Source of the DNA: a bacterium
GTDB lineage: Bacteria > Krumholzibacteriota > Krumholzibacteriia > G020349025
DNA: 64,000 bases
Assembly (NCBI GenBank): GCA_031362565.1
Contig: JANLSU010000069.1
Coordinates: forward strand, 62,419 to 126,418
Direction of reading: 5' to 3'
Shown here piece after piece: positions 44,376-60,586 of the stretch (the stretch's first letter is position 1; every line of letters begins with the position of its first letter). A program made the position numbers and the translations under genes. The notes beneath the pieces were generated by a model. That model was not told the DNA's origin. It searched no databases and saw nothing but the letters and a program-made list of their open reading frames with translations.

Positions 44376-44573
44376 ACTGTCCGTCACGTCCGTAACTTCT
44401 CTTCATAGTGCATCGCTGCGCTCTCGCTGAATACGGAGACGCATCACCCTATCGCGTGTTGGCGCGCGCTCGGCTGCGCCGCAATCGACGATCGACGGTT
44501 CTTGACCCGTTCCGGCCGGATCATTCACCCGGCCGCGACCGCTCACGTGTTTCGACAACCGGGAGGCGCCAGA

Positions 44574-47500
44574 ATGATCGCCCGACAGACCTCGCCCGTC
44601 GCAGGTTCAACCTCGAACCGCTCCGGCCCGGCCTTTCTGCGCATCGTGATCGCCATGTGTCTCTGCGTCGGACTCTTCGCGGCACCCGCACGCGCCGCCT
44701 GCCCGGACGGGACGCCGCTCGTCTCGGGTTCGATGTCGCGCGCGTTTCCGGACGGCGCGAACGGCGGCTACGTCGTTTGGTTCGCCTCGAACCATTTGAA
44801 CGCTCAGCGCGTCGACAACACCGGCCGCGTCGTGTCCGGCTGGCCGGCGGGCGGCGTCCAGGTGACGAGCCAGAACCTGACGACGTTGGAGCCGAGCCAG
44901 TTCAACGCGACCAAGGACTCGAACAACCGGCTCGTCGTCGTCTGGGCGACGAATGCCACCGGCACGTCCAAGGTCAAAGCGCAACGGATCACGTCCGCCG
45001 GAGCGCTCGAATGGGGCGTCGACGGGAAGAACGTCATCACGGGCACGGTTTGGGAAGAGAGGCCGGCGATCGCCGCCGATGCGATCGGCGGGGTCTTCAT
45101 TGCCTTCCAGGTCTCACAGAGCGGCAGCCCCGATGCTTGCACGCAGCGCTTCGACACCAACGGCACTCCGATGCTCGCGGCCGGTAAGGTCGTGTGCAAC
45201 GCAACCGGCGACCAGTACGAGGTGCGCGTCGCGCACACGGGCAACACGTTTGCGGTCGTCTGCTGGACGGATCGTCGCAACGGCATCAACGAAGACATCT
45301 ACGCGCAGAGCTTGGACAGCAACCTGAATACGCTCATGCCCACGAACGGCAGCGTGATGATTCAAGGCGCCGGAAGGCAGCACAACCCGGTGATTGCGGG
45401 CGCGAACTTTGGGCACGCATACATCTTCTGCACCGACGAACGCGCCGGGGTTGCGGGCCGGGCCGATCTCTACGGACAGCACATCATCAACAACGCGACG
45501 GCGAACTGGGCCGCCGGCGGCCGGTACATCGCCGGTGCGAGCCCCTACTTCGTGACGCCGACGGGAATCGACGCGCACACCGACAACACCAAGGGCGTGC
45601 TGGTCACGCTCTACCTCTCGAACGGCGGGGGAGGCCAATATTACCTCTATGCCTACAGAATCTATCCCGATGGCCAGCTGTATCCAAACTATAACCCGGC
45701 GTACGCGGGTCTGACGCACTACAAGAATGACGTGTCGATGATCGGCGACGGCCAGGGTGGCTTCATCTCCAGCTGGAGCGACAACCGTGCGGGGAACATG
45801 GACGTGTACGCCGTGAAGTACTTGCCCGGCTCGGGTCCCGCGTCCGGCTGGACGGCGAACGGCACGGTTCTCTGTGCTGTGACCGGCAATCAAACGGAGA
45901 CGAGCGTCACGAACGCCGCGAGTGGCGGGGCACTGGTCACTTGGACTGGGAGCACCGGTGTTGTCGAGCAGATTGTGTCTTCCGGTGGCGCCATCTCGAC
46001 TGTACCGCCGACGCCCAGCGGTGTTGCGGCCACCGACTGCCCCGTAGGGAGCGCCGGCGTCACGGTCAGCTGGAACGATATCTGCGGTGAAACGGAGTAC
46101 CGCATCCTCCGCGACGGCGTACAGGTTGGAACGGTGGGCACGGACGTGACCTCGTGGCTCGATCCCGCCGACGGATCGCCGCCGCCCGGGAACTACACCT
46201 ATTGCGTGCGCTCGTATCGCGTCAACGGCGGCGAGAGTCCCGGTGCGTGCGATTCGGGCTGCATGCCCGTTCCGCCGCCGCCGGCTGGTTTCACGGAGCA
46301 GACACTGCCGACGAGCGCCGTCAGCGGTCTCGCCTTCTCCCCGCAGCAAAAACCGTCGGTGATCTACGCCGCGCCGTCGACGAACCGCCCGCAGTACGCG
46401 GTGCGCGCCAACAACACGTGGACGGTGAGCCAGATCGAAGACCTCCCGGCGTACGCAATCGCGGTCGCCATCGATGCGGCGTCGAACCCGCACGTCATCT
46501 ATTTGGATCGATCGGGCGCCGATCCCTCGTTGCGGCCTCTGCGCTACGCCAAGCGCACGGGCGCGGGGCCGTGGGTGCCGGAGCCGGTCGATCCCACCGT
46601 GCAAGGCTTTAGCCCGACGACGACGAGCGACCTCGCGCTCGATGCTTCGGGAACACCCTGGGTGGCGTACGCCGACGACGACGGTTCGATCCGGGTCGCA
46701 TGGCGCGGCGTTTCAGGTGGCTGGACGGTCGAGCAGGCCGCTGTCGGCGGAGCGCGCGGCGAGGAAGCCGTGAGCCTCGCCATCTCGCCCGCCGGCAACA
46801 TGGTCGTGAGCTACTACCATTCGATCCTGCAGCAGTTCTTCTGCTGCATTCGGCTCGGAACCAACAACTGGACGCGCGAGCCAGTCGATTCGTCGCCGAA
46901 TCTGAGCTCGATCGCGGGCACCGTGCGGATCAATTCGTCGGGGCAGCCGGTCATCGCCTACTTCGTACCCGGCACCGATCAGCTGAAGATCGCGACTCGC
47001 ACTGGTACCAACGTGTGGTCGTATCAAAACGTGCTCGGCGGCTTGAGCCCGACGACGGGTGTCAATCCGAGGCTCGACATCGACGCAGCGGGTAATTTGC
47101 ACGTCGTCTACAACAACTGGGGCACGCAGCACAAATGGTACGGGAAGCGGACTGGACCGTCGCAGTGGTCACACCAACTCCTGGATCCGGCGCTTCCCGC
47201 GGACTGGCATTTCGTGCGCGTGTCCCCGGGCGGGAAGGCACGCATCGCGACCGGATCGCACTACTGGGATTCGGCATGGGAGATCGTGTCGCCAGTGAAC
47301 GGCGCCACGTGGCCCGCCGAGAGCTCGCAGCTCGTTTCGTGGGCCGGGACCGGCACCGCCACGGTCGAGGCGCGCATGAATCCCGCGAGCAGCTTCCAAA
47401 CGCTCGCGTCGAACGTCGCGGCCGATGAGGCGACTGTCACGGTGCCCGCCTGGGTGACGAGCAACGCCGAAGTGCGCGTCAGCCGGATTTCGCCGGCAGC

Positions 47501-49610
47501 GAGCGCCAGCGCGACCCCGATCAACGTCATCGTGACGCCGCCGACGATCACGTCGCCCATAGGCGGCGAGAGCTGGGCGCCCGGCTCGCAGCAAGTGGTG
47601 ACCTGGTCGGGTGACGGGCCGGTGGACATCACGCTCTTCGCGGACGTCACGTCGCAAGGCACGAGCCTGACCGGACCCTCCACCGTGCTCCGAACCGGCG
47701 CGACCGGGAACTCGGCGACGGTCACGCTCCCGGCGGACATCGCGACCACTCGAGCGCGTATCCAACTGAGCCGCACGGTGACCGGGACCACGTACTACAG
47801 CTTCAGTCCGAGTGCGTTCAAGATCGTGACCGTACCGAACGTGTGGACCTACGACGCCGTCGATACGCCGAATCACGGCTGGAACCAGTGCGACATGTGC
47901 TGGAACGGCGCCAATGGCCTCGACGCGGTATGGCTCGACTATCAGGGTGGCGAGGATCTGCGGCATGCGTCGCGGATCGATCGCACGCTGCCGTGGGTGG
48001 CGGAGGTTGTGGACAGCCAGGGCGCCGTCGGTTCGTGGCCGTCGATCGTCCGCGGCGCGGATGGGCGCTTGCATGTCGCGTACTACGACCACACGGTCGA
48101 CTTCTACGGCACCGGCGGTGGCGCCTACCTCTATTACAAGGTGCGAACCGCAGCCGGCGTATGGCAGCCGCGCGTGCAGGTGGGGCCCTACATCCAGGTC
48201 GTGCAAGGCGACTGCTCGATCGCGCTCGACAACGCCGGCGTGCCCGTCGTCGCCTGCAACTCCGGGAACTATCTCGGCTCGCCGAACTGGATGAAGCTCA
48301 AGGTCTACAAGCAGCAGCCCGACCAGAGCTGGCTCCAGTTCGGAGCCACGATCCCCGCCGAGTCGCCGCATCACATCACGCTCAAATCGGCACCCAGCAA
48401 TGTGTTCTGGGTCTCGTACATCGATCAGGGTGGGGCGCGACTGAACCTGTGGAAGTACAGCGGCGGCGCATGGGCCGTCTTCCCGGCGGTGTTCGCGTCG
48501 GGGCCGTACACCGATGTATCGCTGGCTCTGAACGCCAGCTCCAATCCGCAACTCGCCTACACCGTTCCGGGAACGGCGGCGCTTTCGCAGACCCTCGTCT
48601 TCCACCCGTGGTCGGCAGGGGGCGGTGGCTTCGCGATACCCGCACCGATCGATGTTTCGCTTGGCACGATCTCGAGCGTCTCGCTGACGTATGGCGCGAC
48701 CTACCCGCGCCTTGGGTATATCGGCAACGGTGTGGCGAAGCAGGCGACTGGCGTCTACTCGTCGAGCCAGTACCCCTGCGCCTGGACGAAGGAAGCCGTC
48801 GATGGCACCGGCAACATGGATTCGCAGGTCACACTCGTGGTCAACCCAAGCAACGATGAGCGGTGGTTCCTGTATCGGGACCTCACGGCACAGAGCCTGC
48901 GCTCGGCACGTTGGCTCGACACGACGCCGCCAGCAGCATCACAGTTTTTGAACCCGTCCGCCGGTTGCGACTCGATCTGGGTCGAGTGGCAGTCCACAGG
49001 CGATGACGGCAACGCCGGGGTCGCGGCGTCGTTCGATCTGCGTTGGAGCTCGGGACCGATCACGAACGACACGCAGTTCAACGGCTCGTCCGCTGTTCCG
49101 GCCGCTCTACCGCTCCCCGGACCGTCGGGTACGAACCACCGCATCGCGATCTACATGGGGCCATGCAGCTCACACTTCTATTTCGGCTTGAAAATCCGCG
49201 ACGATGCCGGCAACTTGTCGGCCCTGATCGGCGACCCGTGGGGCGCGCAAACGGCGTGCGTCCACTGGCCGCTCATGTGTGAAGACGCCGCGCACGAGGA
49301 ACGCGAGCCAGAGGCCGCGCCTTTGGTCACGGAGATCACGAGCCTGCGTCCGAATCCGACTTTCGCCTCGGTCGACGTGCAGGTGGCACTGGCGAAGGCG
49401 GATGCCGATGCGGCGATCGATCTCTCGGTCTTCGACGTCGCGGGACGGCGCGTGATGACGTTGCGCCACTCGAACCCGGGCATGGGCCGGCACGCAGTGA
49501 CGTGGGATCTGCACGACACGACGGGACGTCGGGTGAGCGCTGGAATCTACTTCGTCCGCCTGAAGGTGGCGTCGAAGACGTTGATTCAGCGCGTGGTGGT
49601 CATGCGGTAG
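44574..49610 (+). CDS. Large secreted multidomain protein (beta-propeller-like repeats, FN3/Ig-like modules, FlgD-like CTD)
   Basis: GGAGG RBS and signal peptide ending PARAA. Repeats W.D.R....DIYAQ. DTTPPAA...WQSTGDDG...FDLRWS module. CTD PNPT...VFDVAGRRV...WDL...SAGIYFVRL. Confidence 0.9.
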   Translation: MIARQTSPVAGSTSNRSGPAFLRIVIAMCLCVGLFAAPARAACPDGTPLVSGSMSRAFPDGANGGYVVWFASNHLNAQRVDNTGRVVSGWPAGGVQVTSQNLTTLEPSQFNATKDSNNRLVVVWATNATGTSKVKAQRITSAGALEWGVDGKNVITGTVWEERPAIAADAIGGVFIAFQVSQSGSPDACTQRFDTNGTPMLAAGKVVCNATGDQYEVRVAHTGNTFAVVCWTDRRNGINEDIYAQSLDSNLNTLMPTNGSVMIQGAGRQHNPVIAGANFGHAYIFCTDERAGVAGRADLYGQHIINNATANWAAGGRYIAGASPYFVTPTGIDAHTDNTKGVLVTLYLSNGGGGQYYLYAYRIYPDGQLYPNYNPAYAGLTHYKNDVSMIGDGQGGFISSWSDNRAGNMDVYAVKYLPGSGPASGWTANGTVLCAVTGNQTETSVTNAASGGALVTWTGSTGVVEQIVSSGGAISTVPPTPSGVAATDCPVGSAGVTVSWNDICGETEYRILRDGVQVGTVGTDVTSWLDPADGSPPPGNYTYCVRSYRVNGGESPGACDSGCMPVPPPPAGFTEQTLPTSAVSGLAFSPQQKPSVIYAAPSTNRPQYAVRANNTWTVSQIEDLPAYAIAVAIDAASNPHVIYLDRSGADPSLRPLRYAKRTGAGPWVPEPVDPTVQGFSPTTTSDLALDASGTPWVAYADDDGSIRVAWRGVSGGWTVEQAAVGGARGEEAVSLAISPAGNMVVSYYHSILQQFFCCIRLGTNNWTREPVDSSPNLSSIAGTVRINSSGQPVIAYFVPGTDQLKIATRTGTNVWSYQNVLGGLSPTTGVNPRLDIDAAGNLHVVYNNWGTQHKWYGKRTGPSQWSHQLLDPALPADWHFVRVSPGGKARIATGSHYWDSAWEIVSPVNGATWPAESSQLVSWAGTGTATVEARMNPASSFQTLASNVAADEATVTVPAWVTSNAEVRVSRISPAASASATPINVIVTPPTITSPIGGESWAPGSQQVVTWSGDGPVDITLFADVTSQGTSLTGPSTVLRTGATGNSATVTLPADIATTRARIQLSRTVTGTTYYSFSPSAFKIVTVPNVWTYDAVDTPNHGWNQCDMCWNGANGLDAVWLDYQGGEDLRHASRIDRTLPWVAEVVDSQGAVGSWPSIVRGADGRLHVAYYDHTVDFYGTGGGAYLYYKVRTAAGVWQPRVQVGPYIQVVQGDCSIALDNAGVPVVACNSGNYLGSPNWMKLKVYKQQPDQSWLQFGATIPAESPHHITLKSAPSNVFWVSYIDQGGARLNLWKYSGGAWAVFPAVFASGPYTDVSLALNASSNPQLAYTVPGTAALSQTLVFHPWSAGGGGFAIPAPIDVSLGTISSVSLTYGATYPRLGYIGNGVAKQATGVYSSSQYPCAWTKEAVDGTGNMDSQVTLVVNPSNDERWFLYRDLTAQSLRSARWLDTTPPAASQFLNPSAGCDSIWVEWQSTGDDGNAGVAASFDLRWSSGPITNDTQFNGSSAVPAALPLPGPSGTNHRIAIYMGPCSSHFYFGLKIRDDAGNLSALIGDPWGAQTACVHWPLMCEDAAHEEREPEAAPLVTEITSLRPNPTFASVDVQVALAKADADAAIDLSVFDVAGRRVMTLRHSNPGMGRHAVTWDLHDTTGRRVSAGIYFVRLKVASKTLIQRVVVMR

Positions 49611-54126: not shown

Positions 54127-54161
54127 TTGACAACTAATCAAGTAATCTATAGAATATTTGA
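54127..54161 (+). promoter_or_regulatory. Sigma70 promoter with an ArsR-type inverted-repeat operator
   Basis: TTGACA (54127)-17nt-TAGAAT (54150). Inverted repeat TCAAGTAATCTA|TAGAATATTTGA at 54138-54161 has 10/12 symmetric positions. Confidence 0.8.
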
Positions 54162-54163
54162 CT

Positions 54164-54847
54164 ATGGAGACTGAAGCCTCACATCGCGTTTTCAAGGATC
54201 GCCTCTACGGGCAGTTCGCGCGCATCGGCAAGGCGCTCGCCAACCCTCACCGTCTGGAGCTCCTGGAGCTGCTGGCTCAGGGTGAGCGGACCGTCGAGTC
54301 GCTCGCAATCGAAATTGGTGTTTCGATGGCGAACGCGTCTCAGCACCTTCAGTCGCTTCGCGACGCGGGCCTCGTTGAAAACCGCAAGCAAGGACTTTAT
54401 GTCCACTACCGCCTCGCGGACGAGTCGGTGTTCATTCTCTCAAAGGGGCTTCGCACGGTGGCTGAGCGCCGGCTCGCCGAGCTGGAGCGCCTCGTTCGCG
54501 AGCACTTCGGCGATCGATCGGACCCCGAGCCGGTACGTATGGAAGATCTCCTCGCGCGCGCCCGATCGGGGCTGGTCGTAATCCTCGACACTCGACCGGC
54601 GAGCGAATACGTCGCGGGCCACATCGCTGGTGCGCTGTCGGTACCAATCGACGATCTCAAAAAGAGACTCAGGCGACTCCCCAAGGGGAAGGAGTATGTC
54701 GCGTACTGCCGTGGACCCTATTGCGTGTATGCAGATCGTGCTGTGGAACTCCTTCGCAAGAGTGGGCGCAACGCCCGCCGCCTTCTAGACGGGTTTCCCG
54801 AGTGGAAGGCTGCGGGGCTCCCGGTGGAGATCGAAGTCGAGGAATGA
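54164..54847 (+). CDS. ArsR-family regulator fused to a rhodanese domain
   Basis: KALANPHRLELLELLAQGERTVE...SQHL, then LDTRP.SEY..GHIAGA and YCRGPYC. Confidence 0.92.
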   Translation: METEASHRVFKDRLYGQFARIGKALANPHRLELLELLAQGERTVESLAIEIGVSMANASQHLQSLRDAGLVENRKQGLYVHYRLADESVFILSKGLRTVAERRLAELERLVREHFGDRSDPEPVRMEDLLARARSGLVVILDTRPASEYVAGHIAGALSVPIDDLKKRLRRLPKGKEYVAYCRGPYCVYADRAVELLRKSGRNARRLLDGFPEWKAAGLPVEIEVEE

Positions 54848-54913: not shown

Positions 54914-55666
54914 ATGATTTTTCGACCCTCTTACTACTTCGAGACTGGCTGCGCCGCGTACCTCTTCGGCTGCGGCACGCTGGGCAAATGCACCGTCGTT
55001 GATGCGCACGAGGAAGACGTCGACGCCTACAAGGCCTTCGCGGCCTCGAAAGGCATGCAGATCACCCACGTCATCGACACGCACATCCACGCTGACCACC
55101 GATCGGGTGGACCGCTGCTCGCCCGCCAGACCGGTGCGAAGTACCACCTGCACGAATCGGCGAACGTTGACCTGTCGTTCGAGCCGCTACGCGACGGCGG
55201 CGTGGTCGAGCTCGGCAACACACTGGTCAGGGTGATTCACACCCCCGGACACACGCCGGAGAGCATATGCCTCGTCGTGACGGACCTGAAACGAGGCAAG
55301 GAGCCGTGGTTCGTGCTCACGGGCGACACGCTTTTCGTCGGAGCCGTCGGGAGGCCCGATCTTCCGGGCAGAGCGCGCGAGAATGCCGCCGATCTCTATG
55401 CAAGCATCCACGAGAAACTCCTCACGCTTCCCGGAGATATCGAGATTTTTCCCGGCCACTTCTCGGGCTCGGTCTGCGGTTCCGGCATGAGCGGTAAGCC
55501 TTCGAGCACCATCGCATTCGAAACGAGATGGAATCCAATGTTGGGTCTCGATCGCGCGGCGTTTATCGATGCGCTGGCGGACGTACGTCCAAAGCCTGCC
55601 GCGATGGATCAGGTCGTCTCGTACAACCGGGGGCAGGCGCCAAGCGACGGCCGAGCCGAACGATGA
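54914..55666 (+). CDS. MBL-fold metallo-hydrolase (persulfide dioxygenase/glyoxalase II-like)
   Basis: DTHIHADH, HTPGHTPE, TGDTLFVG.VGRPDL and PGH..GSVCG. GGAGG RBS. Confidence 0.9.
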   Translation: MIFRPSYYFETGCAAYLFGCGTLGKCTVVDAHEEDVDAYKAFAASKGMQITHVIDTHIHADHRSGGPLLARQTGAKYHLHESANVDLSFEPLRDGGVVELGNTLVRVIHTPGHTPESICLVVTDLKRGKEPWFVLTGDTLFVGAVGRPDLPGRARENAADLYASIHEKLLTLPGDIEIFPGHFSGSVCGSGMSGKPSSTIAFETRWNPMLGLDRAAFIDALADVRPKPAAMDQVVSYNRGQAPSDGRAER

Positions 55667-56967
55667 GCCCAAGGAACACCGAACTGCCCATTCGTCTGGG
55701 GCTTCGAGCGAACGCCGCGCAGTTCTCGTTGCTCGTCATCGTGAACGCCTTCGTGGGCGCGATGGTCGGGATGGAACGCAGCATCTTGCCCGCCATCGCT
55801 CAACACGACTTCCACATCGTGGCTCGCAGCGCAGTACTTTCGTTCATCGTGGTTTTCGGCCTCACCAAGGCAGCCACGAACTATCTCGCCGGTCGCTGGT
55901 CGGATCGCTTTGGGCGCAAGCGGGTGCTGGTTGCAGGCTGGCTCGCGGCCGTGCCGGTGCCGTTCCTCCTCATGTGGGCGCCTCGTTGGACCTGGATTCT
56001 CGTCGCGAACGCCCTGCTCGGTGTGAGTCAGGGGCTGACGTGGTCGACGACCGTCATCATGAAGATTGACCTCGTGGGCAGCGAACGCCGCGGACTGGCG
56101 ATGGGCCTCAACGAGTTCGCCGGTTACTTTGCAGTGGCAGTGGCCGCGCTCGCGACAGGCTGGATTGCGGCGCGTTACGGGCTCAGACCCGAGCCCTTCT
56201 ATCCCGGCGTCGTGTTCGTCGCCGTCGGCCTCGCGCTGTCCGTTCTGGTCGTTCGGGAGACGACGGGGCACGCGGTGCACGAGTCGATGTTGCGGCCCGA
56301 GACGGAGCCGCGCGCTGGGCGCACACAACGCCAGGTCTTCTGGGACACTACGCTGCGAGACCCCAACCTCTCGAGCATCAGCCAGGCCGGGCTGGTCAAC
56401 AATCTCAACGACGGCATGGCGTGGGGCCTCTTTCCACTGTTCTTCGCCGCTGCGAACATGAGCCTGGAGAGAATTGCTCTGCTTGCCGCGATCTACCCGG
56501 CGACGTGGGGAGTCGTGCAGCTCGGAACGGGAGCATTCTCCGACAAGGTCGGCCGGAAACGGCTGATCGTCGTGGGCATGTGGGTGCAGGCCATCGGCAT
56601 CGCCGTAGTGATCCTGGCATCCGGCTTCAACGGGTTCGGGGCAGGTGCAGCCTTGCTCGGCATTGGGACTGCGATGGTTTATCCGACGCTCTTGGCAGCG
56701 ATCGGTGATGTTGCGCACCCGTCATGGCGGGCCTCGTCCGTCGGTGTCTACCGATTCTGGCGAGATCTCGGCTACGCTGTCGGAGCCGTTGTTGCAGGGC
56801 TCACAGCGGACGAGTTCGGCCTCAAGGGAGCGATGTGGCTCGTCGCCACCCTGACCTTCGCCTCGGGTCTACTTGCGGCGTTCAGGATGACCGAGACACT
56901 CGGTCGGAACGGTTACCCACTGACAACGGGAAGAGGAGAATCGTCATGGCCACTGCCTGTCCGATAG
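55663..56967 (+). CDS. MFS transporter
   Basis: About 12 TM helices, GRWSDRFGRKR and GAFSDKVGRKR motifs. ATGA-coupled to the MBL gene. Confidence 0.92.
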   Translation: MSPRNTELPIRLGLRANAAQFSLLVIVNAFVGAMVGMERSILPAIAQHDFHIVARSAVLSFIVVFGLTKAATNYLAGRWSDRFGRKRVLVAGWLAAVPVPFLLMWAPRWTWILVANALLGVSQGLTWSTTVIMKIDLVGSERRGLAMGLNEFAGYFAVAVAALATGWIAARYGLRPEPFYPGVVFVAVGLALSVLVVRETTGHAVHESMLRPETEPRAGRTQRQVFWDTTLRDPNLSSISQAGLVNNLNDGMAWGLFPLFFAAANMSLERIALLAAIYPATWGVVQLGTGAFSDKVGRKRLIVVGMWVQAIGIAVVILASGFNGFGAGAALLGIGTAMVYPTLLAAIGDVAHPSWRASSVGVYRFWRDLGYAVGAVVAGLTADEFGLKGAMWLVATLTFASGLLAAFRMTETLGRNGYPLTTGRGESSWPLPVR

Positions 56968-57731
56968 ACCTCGACACACGGAAGCTGCGCGACGAGATCC
57001 AGTCGATGTACGCGCGCGTCGCGGCTGATCCGTCGGGGGATTTTCATTTCCACCGGGGTCCCGGCTACGCGGCGGAGTTTCTTGGGTACGATCGCGATGC
57101 GCTCGCTCAGTTGCCTGACCAGAGCACCGCGTCGTTTGCCGGTGTTGCAAACCCACACCGGATGGGACCCATCGAAGAGGGGTCCGTGGTCGTCGATATC
57201 GGTTGCGGTGCGGGTATGGATCTTCTCTTGGCGGCCATTTGCGTGGGCCGACGCGGTCGCGCGATCGGCGTGGACATGACCGAGGCGATGGCCGAGAAGG
57301 CGCGCACTGCGGCCCGCGCCGCCGGGCTCGAGAACGTGGATGTCCGGCTCGGCGACGCCATGGCGCTGCCCCTCGATACGTCGAGCGTCGATTTCGTCAT
57401 CTCCAATGGCGTTCTCAATCTGACTTCGGACAAGTCCGTCGCTTACGGCGAGGTCTTCCGCGTGCTCAAACCGGGAGCGAAGTTTCTCTACGCCGACATC
57501 GTCGTGGCAAGCGAGCTCTCGGAGTCGATCCGCAAGGACATCGATTTGTGGACCGGCTGAATTGCCGGTGCTCTCCCGGAGGGAGAGCTCATTGCGGTTC
57601 TCGAACAGATCGGTTTCCGAGGCGTCGAGATTCGGGAGAGGTTCGATCCGTTCCGAGGCACGAGCAAGGAGCGCACTGCCCGAAAATTTGGCGTGGTAGG
57701 CGTGAACATTTTTGCCCGCAAACCCGAGTGA
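56946..57731 (+). CDS. ArsM-like SAM-dependent methyltransferase, predicted selenoprotein (UGA at 57558-57560 read as Sec)
   Basis: VVDIGCGAGMD, GVDMT and VISNGVLNL. DLWTG-TGA-IAGAL matches the ArsM W..CIAGAL motif. The frame continues 56 sense codons to ...IFARKPE*, and a hairpin follows the UGA. Confidence 0.85.
57558..57590 (+). promoter_or_regulatory. Bacterial SECIS-like element
   Basis: UGA, 9 nt, then stem GCTCTCCC / loop GGA / GGGAGAGC (57570-57588). The loop starts with G, 18 nt after the UGA. Confidence 0.75.
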
Positions 57732-57794
57732 AGTGCTCCAGCGCGCCTACGACCGCGTAATCGGCGCCGTCGAGGATCTCGTAAACGGCCGCGA

Positions 57795-59180
57795 TCAGCT
57801 GATCGACGACGCCGGCTCGTCGCTCGCTCGTGCGCACACCCGGAACCCTGCGAAGACGTCGCGCCGATCGCGGGTGTAGAAGTTGCGGTACGCGCTGCGT
57901 GGAATGCGCCGCCGCGTCGCAAAGCAGCCGCCGCGCAACACCATGTGCCGGCCGTCGTACCACGGCTCCGAGTACTCACGGTACGGATCGGGTATGAAGC
58001 CGGGATAGGGCCGGAACTCGCTCGCCGTCCACTCCCAGGCGTTGCCAATCAATTGGCGAACGCCGTGGGCGCTGTCTCCGGCGGCGTGCGCGGTGGCGTC
58101 GACGGTTGCGAGCCGCATACCCTCGAGGTTGGCACGCTCCGGCGCCGGCGCATCGTCGCCCCATGGATAGCGTTGTTTCGGAGCTGGCGCATCCTGCCGC
58201 GAGGCTGCGAGCCCTTCGGGCGTCGTCGTCGCCGCTGCCTCCCATTCCGCTTCGGTTGGGAGCCGCACACCAGCCCAACGGCAGTAGGCGTCGGCCTCGT
58301 ACCAGTTGACGTGAATCAGGGTCGCACTCGGATCGAGTTCGTCCCAGCGCTCGAAGGTCCGCTGCTCCCAGCGCCCGGCCGCTGCACGTCGCCAATAGAC
58401 CGGGTTCCTGGCACTGGCGCTCGAGCGCCACGCCCAGCCCTCGTCGTCCCACACGTCGCGTCGCCCATAGCCGCCGGCTTCGACGAAGTCCCGGAACTCG
58501 CCGTTTGTCACCGCCGTGCGTGCCAGGCGGAACGGCGCGACCTGGACCGGATGCGCCCGTTTCTCGTTGTCGAACACGAACAGCTCGGCGCCAGGATCGC
58601 TGCCGAGCATCAGGGTGCCACCCAAAATCGTGATGTATTCGCTTCGTCGGTCGCTGGGCGCGTGGGTCGCAACGGGATCCGCGGCGGCGCGCCATTCCGC
58701 CGCCGCGTGCAGCTGCGGCGCCGCCCAGCCGTGCGTCTGACGCGTGTAGGTGAACGCCTCATCGTGCATGTCTTCGTGCGCGATCGCCAGCCGGTAGTAA
58801 TACGCGACCTCGGGCCGGTCGGCGTCCCCCGCGTACTCGATCGCGCGGCCGAGCACGGCGTCCATGTATGCGAGGGTGTCGGCGCGGGAGGGGAGCGGCA
58901 AGCTCCAGCGCGTGTCGTGCGCCACCTTGGCCGAATCGTACAGAGCGTCGCCTGCACTGCGCAGCGGTCCCAGCCCGCGCAGCTCGCGCAATACCCACCT
59001 TTCCTGGAACCAGGCCACGTGCCCGATCTCCCAGAGGAGAGGGTTCACGATCGACAGACGCGGTCCCCATAGCTGATCGTCGTCCAGGTCTCGCACCAGA
59101 TCGAGCGTGCGGCGGCGGGCGTCGAGGAGGGCGGCGCGAAGCTCGTCGGGAGACGTCGGTGCTGCGTAGGGAACCGTCAA
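57795..59180 (-). CDS. senA: Selenoneine synthase SenA (EgtB-like DinB_2 + FGE-sulfatase fold)
   Basis: NPLLWEIGHVAWFQERW, YDSAKVAHDTRWSLPLP, HEDMHDEA, RLPTEAEWE, GNAWEWT and VLRGG. Adjacent to senB. TTG start with GAGG RBS. Confidence 0.8.
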   Translation of the reverse strand: MTVPYAAPTSPDELRAALLDARRRTLDLVRDLDDDQLWGPRLSIVNPLLWEIGHVAWFQERWVLRELRGLGPLRSAGDALYDSAKVAHDTRWSLPLPSRADTLAYMDAVLGRAIEYAGDADRPEVAYYYRLAIAHEDMHDEAFTYTRQTHGWAAPQLHAAAEWRAAADPVATHAPSDRRSEYITILGGTLMLGSDPGAELFVFDNEKRAHPVQVAPFRLARTAVTNGEFRDFVEAGGYGRRDVWDDEGWAWRSSASARNPVYWRRAAAGRWEQRTFERWDELDPSATLIHVNWYEADAYCRWAGVRLPTEAEWEAAATTTPEGLAASRQDAPAPKQRYPWGDDAPAPERANLEGMRLATVDATAHAAGDSAHGVRQLIGNAWEWTASEFRPYPGFIPDPYREYSEPWYDGRHMVLRGGCFATRRRIPRSAYRNFYTRDRRDVFAGFRVCARASDEPASSIS

Positions 59181-59249
59181 AATCTAGTCCTCTCGAGCGC
59201 CGCGCGCGGTGCGTGCATTCCGGTCCGCCGTGAAGTATCGTCGTCGGTC

Positions 59250-60221
59250 GTGACGAACATTATCATGATCACGCCGGCGGTGCACGGCCGCTCCGGCAAC
59301 TCAATCACGGCGCAGCGCTGGGCGCTGCGGCTGCGTGAGCTCGGACACTGCGTCCACGTCGCGACCGCATATGCCGGCCAGCAATGCGATCTCTTGGTGG
59401 CTCTGCACGCCCGCAAGAGCGCCGCGTCCGTCGCCGCATTCCGCCGCCGCTGTCCGGACCGTCCCGTCATTGTCGCGTTGACGGGAACCGACGTGTACCG
59501 CGACCTCCGCCGCAGTGCGGTCGCGCGTCGCACCCTCGCTGCGGCCGATCGCATCGTGGTGTTACAGCCGCTCGCTGCGCACGCCGTCTCAGCTCGGCTG
59601 CGCTCGCGCATCGTAGTGATCTACCAGTCGGCGGTGACGCCGTCGCACCCGACAGCGCCGCGGAAGCGGCGTGGCCTCGCAGAGGTGCTCGTGCTTGCGC
59701 ATCTGCGCGCGGTCAAGGACCCGCTGCGGGCCGCGTACGCGGTGCGGCTCCTGCCGCCGGTCGCGCGGCTGCGCGTCGTGCACGCCGGTCGAGCCCACTC
59801 GGCAACGTGGGCGGCGCGGGCGCGCCGCGAGATGGTACGGAATTCCCGGTATCGGTGGCTCGGAGAGCTGTCGCACCCGGCTGCGAAACGCCGCTTGATG
59901 CGTGCGGCGTTGCTCGTGGTCGCGTCACGTCTCGAAGGTGGCGCCAACGTCGTCTCGGAGGCAATCGTCGCCGGCACACCGGTCGTCGCGTCCCGCATTC
60001 CCGGCAACGTGGGGCTTCTCGGCGCCCGATACCCGGGCTATTTCCCGGTCGGCGACACCGTTGGTTTGGCCGCCCTGTTGCAGCGCGTCGATACCGACGC
60101 TCGCTTCGTCGCCAGTTTGCGACGCGCCGCGCGCCTACTGGCACCGCGTTTTCGGCCCGACCGCGAACGTGCCGCTTGGAAGTCTCTGCTGAGCGAGTTA
60201 CTCGACCGAAAACCCAAGTGA
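59250..60221 (+). CDS. senB: Selenosugar synthase SenB (TIGR04348-type glycosyltransferase)
   Basis: ITPA...SGNSITAQRW, ALHARKSA, LTGTDVYRD, HLRAVKDP, SRLEGGANVVSEA and GLLG..YPGYFPVGD. Confidence 0.88.
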   Translation: MTNIIMITPAVHGRSGNSITAQRWALRLRELGHCVHVATAYAGQQCDLLVALHARKSAASVAAFRRRCPDRPVIVALTGTDVYRDLRRSAVARRTLAAADRIVVLQPLAAHAVSARLRSRIVVIYQSAVTPSHPTAPRKRRGLAEVLVLAHLRAVKDPLRAAYAVRLLPPVARLRVVHAGRAHSATWAARARREMVRNSRYRWLGELSHPAAKRRLMRAALLVVASRLEGGANVVSEAIVAGTPVVASRIPGNVGLLGARYPGYFPVGDTVGLAALLQRVDTDARFVASLRRAARLLAPRFRPDRERAAWKSLLSELLDRKPK

Positions 60222-60586
60222 CTCGCGCGAGACTTTGAGCAGAGCGATACTGGGATCCGTTGGGACGCCAGAGGTGTCGGTCGCTTGGGCCTCGCTAGCC
60301 TGGATTTCCACGGAGCGGAATCTCCCTAACGCGGCGGGCTTCCCAGTCGAAGCAGGAGCCTGAATTTCGCAGAGAATCCCGGCACCACCAGCCATCGGCG
60401 TTAAGGTCGCATTGCGCCGATCTTCGGTCAATGCACCCAGTTCCGGCGGGTTCATGATGCCGTTGGCTGAGGCGGTCTCGCGTCGTCGAGTAGGTATCTT
60501 CTTTCGGCACTTTCACTTACAGGTGCAGGCAGGTTGTTGGCGTTTTTGCGCTTGATTTCGTTGACCCGATGTAGGATCGTGCACAC

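Follow-up and report, generated by a model that had tools for sequence, protein, structure and literature searches.

An ArsM-like selenoprotein gene in a putative sulfur operon of Krumholzibacteriota and its possible substrates

Introduction

In a genome of the phylum Krumholzibacteriota (G000; assembly GCA_031362565.1), an ArsM-like methyltransferase gene is interrupted by an in-frame UGA codon. Two questions are raised by this locus: whether the codon is a stop or is decoded as selenocysteine (Sec), and whether the resulting protein is an arsenic enzyme. A sequence-only reading of the window, a 64,000-nt stretch of contig JANLSU010000069.1 to which all coordinates below refer, had proposed an ArsM-like selenoenzyme. 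Here, the codon, the adjacent hairpin, the protein, and the gene neighborhood are followed across related loci.

Reading frame and the in-frame UGA codon

The gene and the elements of its recoding are the following.

56946..57731, plus strand: ArsM-like class I SAM methyltransferase gene, 261 aa, Sec205 (ORF, alignment, profiles, and structural model)
57558..57560, plus strand: in-frame UGA at codon 205, decoded as selenocysteine and aligned with Cys224 of CmArsM
57570..57588, plus strand: upper stem of a bacterial SECIS element, 8 bp; the GGA loop (57578-57580) lies 17 nt from the UGA (folding and covariation)

An AG-rich ribosome site precedes the ATG at 56946, and the frame is open up to the TGA at 57558-57560, which follows the residues DLWTG. 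The proposal that the frame runs on was correct: 56 further codons lead to the TGA at 57729-57731 and give a protein of 261 aa. With the read-through tail, the score against the PRK11873 ArsM profile rises from 171 to 203 bits, and the final helices and strands of the AlphaFold model come from this tail. Codon 205 aligns with Cys224 of CmArsM, in agreement with the earlier statement that ArsM has a cysteine at this place, and the residues around it, U-I-A-G, form a UxxG motif. A contig from run X1 covers positions 56395-60323 with zero differences, although this run is possibly the source of the window DNA and thus is not independent; contigs from runs X2-X4 contain only fragments of relatives.

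The same codon is found in the relatives. Among the 120 best database homologues (the product of the window itself included), 117 are exactly 204 aa long and all cover 76-78% of the query, as expected if standard annotation truncates the gene; some of these truncated proteins carry the name "arsenite methyltransferase." When species genomes were scanned with only the 204-aa N-terminal part, 43 genome loci were obtained. Codon 205 is TGA in all of them, and a tail of 55-65 conserved residues follows in 42, the remaining locus running off its contig; four loci (L027-L029 and L037) show a break upstream. In the metagenome set, which consists of the best 80 of 544 loci and was collected with search patterns biased toward Cys if at all, the codon is TGA in 76 loci, TGC in one (L119), and uncovered in three, that is, TGA in 76 of the 77 loci that cover it. 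Throughout the 119 loci with a stop, which come from several phyla, it is always TGA and never TAA or TAG. TGC occupies the Sec column in both L119 and L188. Beyond the stem, 697 comparisons with the window contain 196, 188, and 417 differences at the first, second, and third codon positions, respectively; hence the tail evolves as coding sequence.

Cysteine and Sec also alternate at this position on a broader scale. The 150 cluster representatives comprise 71 of canonical ArsM type, one mixed, and 78 with a non-canonical pattern; in the latter the Sec column contains Cys in 34, coincides exactly with the end of the protein in 29, and falls under neither case in 15. The Cys homologues are full length. 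With P0130, one of the Cys members, as the query, an atlas search gave nothing beyond automatic "arsenite methyltransferase" labels and generic names.

SECIS hairpin and the selenocysteine machinery

The stem beginning at the 10th base past the UGA pairs 57570-57577 with 57581-57588 exclusively by Watson-Crick pairs, so that the 8-bp hairpin with a GGA loop described by the sequence-only reading is reproduced in its geometry. The segment 57558-57600 folds at -21.6 kcal/mol (z -3.4), a value equaled by none of 200 shuffles; longer segments give z-scores of -1.9 and -2.65. Exactly this geometry, chosen post hoc, follows 10 of the 111,243 TGA trinucleotides of the genome. The bSECIS consensus, taken from a published description (PMC13188914), has a loop of 3-9 nt, a stem of 4-16 bp, a G in the first two loop positions, a distance of 16-37 nt between the UGA and the loop, and a minimum free energy of at most -7.5. 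Checked against it, the hairpin lies within every range (loop 3, stem 8, GG, 17 nt, -16.9 kcal/mol).

The hairpin is conserved and covaries among relatives. An alignment of 22 loci from the nearer clade shows pairing in all 168 of 168 cells of the stem; three of the eight pairs vary on both sides, in some cases altering the amino acid, and five are invariant. The shuffle test is inflated by the kinship of the sequences. The Ala codon at +4 after the UGA is the rare GCT in 17 of 17 loci. L119, the locus with TGC, retains a near-identical peptide, and its stem is gone. A second hairpin of 6 bp at 57552-57569, partly conserved in relatives, can hold the UGA in its loop beside the SECIS stem.

The source genome, 100% complete with 1.85% contamination, encodes tRNA-Sec (selC), SelA, SelB, and SelD, the three proteins scoring above curated cut-offs. 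The selD gene, located on a separate contig (C6), is of the Sec type and has its own in-frame TGA. Thus, SelB with Sec-tRNA would read the GGA-loop hairpin, and UGA205 would be decoded as Sec. Given the conservation of the TGA, the hairpin, the tail, and the Sec machinery, the methyltransferase is almost certainly a real selenoprotein, as had been claimed. A true stop, which would mean either a nonsense pseudogene or a 204-aa protein that is functional, has in its favor the 204-aa database entries and the lack of a selA match in 4 of 20 genomes (1.9-3.4 Mb assemblies of unstated completeness; selA exceeds the cut-off in the other 16, the 20 carrying related loci from among the 43), but it is scarcely credible and was rejected given a codon that is TGA only, a tail that is conserved with a coding pattern and completes the fold, and Cys homologues of full length.

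Departure from canonical ArsM

The overall architecture of the protein is that of ArsM. The AlphaFold model has a mean pLDDT of 86, and the closest folds, ranks 1 to 12, are all ArsM/AS3MT structures with TM-scores of 0.68-0.74. From the set of features that define canonical ArsM/AS3MT, the fold and the SAM-binding motif are present, and the Cys174/Cys224 pair and Cys72 (and Cys44) are lacking. According to a study of CmArsM, each of the four cysteines is necessary for As(III) methylation, and Cys174 and Cys224 bind the arsenical (PMC6138428). The window protein has Val67 at the position of Cys72, Gly155 at that of Cys174, and no cysteine in the region of Cys44; its other characteristic residues are Cys5 and His34/His36. 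The score of 202.8 bits against NF008823 (PRK11873) is below the cut-off of 263.

This pattern is shared by the relatives, as counted in 112 complete loci (11 of 123 were dropped as incomplete). The Cys174 column is Gly in all 112, and the Cys72 column is Val or Ile in all 112 and never Cys; His34 is present in 111 loci and His36 in 108. A second cysteine is found in 106 loci, six having none at the four positions checked: near the N-terminus (63 loci) and at positions 212 (37), 160 (35), and 235 (49). The types with N-terminal Cys5 and with Cys160/212 are nearly mutually exclusive, only three loci having both, and a second Sec at the position of Cys5 occurs in none of the 112. In the model of the window protein, residues 1-9 have a pLDDT below 50 and Cys5 is unplaced.

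A quick IQ-TREE reconstruction, unrooted and based on an alignment that kept the cysteine columns, included 166 rows (148 representatives and 18 of 35 A1 rows; two short rows were omitted). A branch with an SH-aLRT of 99 separates the 71 canonical ArsM rows from the rest, and the methyltransferase falls outside the canonical group. Judged by its sequence, the protein is not a canonical ArsM, and arsenite activity is doubtful because both Cys72 and Cys174 are missing. Of the earlier description as an ArsM-like selenoenzyme, the Sec residue and the likeness to ArsM therefore stand; the implied activity toward arsenite does not share this support.

Operon structure and origin

The methyltransferase gene is the last of four genes on the same strand, in the order ArsR-rhodanese, MBL, MFS, methyltransferase, of which the last three overlap. 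That they make up one transcription unit is well supported.

54127..54155, plus strand: predicted sigma-70-type promoter, 11/12 consensus, 17-nt spacer (sequence match)
54138..54161, no strand: inverted repeat (7-10-7, imperfect) covering the -10 box; candidate operator for ArsR-rhodanese (comparison of loci)
54164..54847, plus strand: ArsR/SmtB repressor fused to a rhodanese domain (NF033788 above cut-off, PF00581)
54914..55666, plus strand: MBL-fold hydrolase, persulfide-dioxygenase-like (top PDB matches 3R2U and 3TP9; ETHE1 4CHL matches too)
55663..56967, plus strand: MFS transporter; its gene covers the MBL stop codon at one end and, at the other, the first 22 nt of the methyltransferase gene
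57795..59180, minus strand: senA, selenoneine synthase, convergent neighbor (NF041186, 478 bits, cut-off 420)
59250..60221, plus strand: senB, selenosugar synthase, neighbor (TIGR04348, 372 bits, cut-off 300)

Among the structural matches of the MBL protein, 3R2U is presumably of the CstB type. The start codon of the first gene lies 8 nt past the -10 box, and therefore the operon mRNA is probably leaderless. One promoter match of this quality is expected by chance per 7 kb; the -35 box is present in 11 of 11 hand-picked related loci, and the inverted repeat is perfect in two of these and imperfect in the others. The operon is probably autoregulated. The ArsR-rhodanese fusion with its conserved putative operator is 70-76% identical across phyla and may constitute a separate type of sulfane-sulfur sensor.

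The Sec methyltransferase gene was not found in the 40 relatives searched. A strict profile search across 201 genomes from the phylum, with 13 candidates scored per genome, found the family in two, namely G000 and a genome with a Cys form. Since the four-gene operon is 70-82% identical to operons of other phyla, it was likely acquired horizontally. The GC content (0.61-0.64 in the operon, 0.70 in senA-senB, and 0.65 on average in the genome) adds weak support for transfer. The Sec gene occurs twice or three times within single actinobacterial assemblies (L035, L040, and L043; L044 and L050), in differing neighborhoods, and in L043 a methyltransferase-TusA fusion is found nearby.

Elsewhere in the window, the region from 60587 to the contig end at 64000 contains genes for IS481/integrase-like transposases, accompanied by a probable ATPase partner, and run X1 contigs break near 60295-60330. 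Positions 44502-49610 encode a 1702-aa secreted protein with a C-terminus that, by eye, resembles an FlgD/T9SS-type sorting tail.

Genomic context across related loci

All three operon partners accompany the methyltransferase in 17 of the 43 genome loci, which come from records of Deltaproteobacteria, Gammaproteobacteria, Acidobacteriota, Actinomycetota, and Dormibacteraeota; in the last two the gene order is rearranged. Sulfur-trafficking genes (rhodanese, MBL, DsrE, TusA, and YeeE) are found near 31 of 43 genome loci and 21 of 80 metagenome loci, the latter averaging only 4 kb in this count, and ars genes near one of 43 and one of 80, respectively. For 20 canonical arsM genes of relatives used as controls, the corresponding numbers are zero for sulfur genes and four for ars genes. 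The sulfur queries were drawn from the very loci counted, some of which belong to a common genome or clade, and a single class supplied the control genes. Twelve of the 43 genome loci lack any tested sulfur gene; one locus lies beside ArsI/CadI and another beside ArsC. A set of 35 hand-picked neighbors further includes DsrE, TusA with DsrE2, YeeE, 1-Cys peroxiredoxin, OsmC, and a pyridine-nucleotide disulfide reductase with rhodanese.

Fusions were observed among 22 long members of the subfamily, to TusA in three, MerC in two, DUF2652 in seven, and a DsbA-like domain in one. The DUF2652-methyltransferase fusions P0158, P0162, P0165, P0174, and P0176 end at the Sec column and probably represent an uncatalogued family of fused selenoproteins. 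The MerC fusions are the Cys-form members P0154 and P0251, and P0154 ends in a BufA2 metallophore-like domain. Small DsrE-like genes lie directly 3' of the Sec gene at L011:6777-7902, L012:8948-9325, L013:8800-9033, and L051:633-869; the frames in L013 and L051 have only 78-79 aa, that in L013 spanning two thirds of the Pfam model. In Actinomycetota, the position directly upstream of the Sec gene is often taken by a gene for a conserved protein of 120 aa that has no Pfam match (L032, L035, L036, L038-L040, L044, L047, L050, and L052).

The other neighbors in the window, senA and senB, stand side by side without senC, and senA ends 63 nt from the methyltransferase gene. Neither was found near the 43 genome and 80 metagenome related loci, many of which are short. 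SenA exceeds the cut-off in five of six family relatives, all five without the Sec methyltransferase gene, and in none of 34 other members of the class that were searched; in the two family relatives viewed at length, other genes adjoin senA. The suggestion that novelty lies in the context consequently divides in two: the upstream sulfur operon is conserved, and the adjacent senA-senB pair is not.

Possible substrates

From sequence and context, we consider the chances about even that the methyltransferase acts on persulfide, sulfide, or selenide. The four-gene operon would then handle reactive sulfur. At rising levels of sulfane sulfur, the ArsR-rhodanese repressor would leave its operator. 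Sec205, located beside SAM at the metalloid-binding site of ArsM, would receive a sulfur (or selenium) atom, the donor being sulfide, a small persulfide, or a rhodanese, TusA, or DsrE carrier, and the bound chalcogen would attack the methyl group of SAM. Methanethiol or methylselenol would be released by a second thiol, Cys5 in the window protein, or by a cellular thiol; the role of Cys5, which belongs to the unmodeled residues, is proposed here as that of a resolving thiol for Sec205. In parallel, the MBL enzyme would oxidize persulfides and the MFS protein would export a product.

The sulfur-gene neighborhoods, the TusA fusions (3/22), and the second cysteine (106/112 loci) argue for this reading of the protein as a sulfur or selenium methyltransferase. 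Against it count the nearest folds, all of which are ArsM/AS3MT, the MerC and DUF2652 fusions, the 12 of 43 genome loci that lack the tested sulfur genes, and the ArsI/CadI and ArsC neighbors. The known methyltransferases of H2S and methanethiol belong to other families and, in the accessible parts of the reports, mddH has no clear link to sulfur genes (PMC11445057, PMC12904073), so that context need not predict S-methylation.

A broader version of the same reading would extend it to the entire non-canonical ArsM branch with one Cys or Sec, the curated selenoproteins included. This branch might be a widespread persulfide/selenopersulfide methyltransferase rather than an arsenic enzyme, with sulfane sulfur from rhodanese, TusA, or DsrE passed onto Sec to yield methanethiol, DMS, or methylselenium; we put this forward tentatively, as a possibility that is more speculative than the reading for the clade itself.

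Another scenario, which appears rather unlikely, is methylation of trivalent organoarsenicals or thioarsenicals by the selenoprotein, with Sec205 and a mobile Cys5 replacing the Cys174/Cys224 pair and the sulfur genes dealing with sulfur freed from thioarsenic species. Some ArsMs function with fewer conserved cysteines. The ArsM fold, Sec at the arsenic-binding position, and the name "arsenite methyltransferase" given by NCBIfam to two related families agree with this scenario, as does the dispensability of Cys72 for MAs(III) methylation in CmArsM, reported in the same study (PMC6138428). It is opposed by the glycine found in all 112 loci in place of Cys174, half of the arsenic-binding pair, and by the scarcity of ars genes, near only 2 of 123 loci. 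Moreover, G000 already has a canonical arsM, with ArsR upstream, and an acr3-arsC locus elsewhere in the genome.

It is also unlikely that a single selenolate serves to bind or methylate another soft metal or metalloid (Hg, Te, or Sb) or an organic thiol. The conserved His34/His36 could act as ligands, MerC is fused to 2 of 22 long members, and some loci are near heavy-metal efflux genes; the recurring neighbors, however, are sulfur carriers, and no mer operon was noticed on a general viewing of the neighbor lists. Finally, a tailoring role in selenoneine metabolism together with SenA and SenB, for example in making Se-methylselenoneine, is suggested by the proximity of the two genes, both above cut-offs, but is highly improbable and was rejected: the sen neighborhood is not conserved in the 123 related loci (many of them short), five of six family relatives have senA without the methyltransferase gene, and the convergent genes are not co-transcribed.

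Relation to known systems

The earlier caution that Sec-containing ArsM-like proteins may already be catalogued proved justified. An arsenite methyltransferase selenoprotein and three fused UxxG families are listed in two sources (PMC13188914, PMC9312934). The former is NF008823, "arsenite methyltransferase," attributed to Fomenko 2007, and the fused families, attributed to Haft and Tolstoy 2025, are NF047649 (MTase/UXPK-star), NF041537 (ArsM/AhpD), and NF041536 (ArsM/DUF2284), according to the published tabulation (PMC13188914). Like these, the window protein carries xxG after a Sec that stands at the position of ArsM Cys224. Unlike the fused families, it is a stand-alone protein with one Sec and no C-terminal extension, and it differs from the catalogued families by its HFH motif, its N-terminal Cys, and its ArsR-rhodanese/MBL/MFS operon. 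With 202, 214, and 208 bits against NF047649, NF041537, and NF041536, it stays below the respective cut-offs of 460, 510, and 575; over all four catalogued families the range is 202-214 bits against cut-offs of 263-575.

Two proteins, L176:947-1798 and L179:1501-2352, score above the cut-off of NF047649, a double selenoprotein. They also lack Cys72 and Cys174, and their first Sec is in the same column as Sec205; L179 is 39% identical to the window protein over 224 aa. Because these two members share the cysteine pattern and the Sec column, the ArsM-like selenoprotein as a kind is already known. For NF041537, no protein exceeded the cut-off in 121 genomes, and its cysteine pattern was judged from the best partial matches.

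CmArsM and AS3MT (PDB 4FR0 and 6CX6) share with the window protein the fold, the SAM-binding motif, and the Cys224/Sec position, whereas the window protein lacks Cys72, Cys174, and a cysteine in the Cys44 region, belongs to a separate branch, and is encoded outside ars operons. The S. aureus cst operon with CstB and the Xylella BigR-blh operon likewise combine an ArsR-type repressor with rhodanese and persulfide-dioxygenase-like genes; in the window, by contrast, the repressor carries the rhodanese as a fused domain, and a Sec methyltransferase is part of the operon. A review on persulfide-detoxification operons mentions methyltransferase zero times. MddH, MddM1, and MddM2 are also class I SAM methyltransferases and have the activity proposed here, but, compared by description only and within the accessible text, they are of UbiE or UbiG type, about 205 aa long, and have no relation to ArsM and no catalytic Cys or Sec (PMC11445057, PMC12904073). 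The literature search, weak in that most subscription papers were outside its reach, found nothing on the substrate or sulfur context of the subfamily. What appears to be new, with respect to the accessible literature, is the sulfur operon of the stand-alone clade and the case against arsenic.

Implications

In public collections, this clade is stored as truncated 204-aa proteins, some of them labeled "arsenite methyltransferase." For the database members of the clade, sequence and label alike are probably in error, and counts of arsM in soils and sediments may be inflated. Members with Cys exist, which makes the substrate testable without Sec expression. If the sulfur/selenium reading is true, a selenoenzyme connects the detoxification of persulfides with the formation of methylated sulfur or selenium gases. 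If the extension to the broad branch is also true, volatile sulfur and selenium compounds would arise in soils and sediments by a route so far hidden, overlooked because gene callers cut the gene at the UGA codon.
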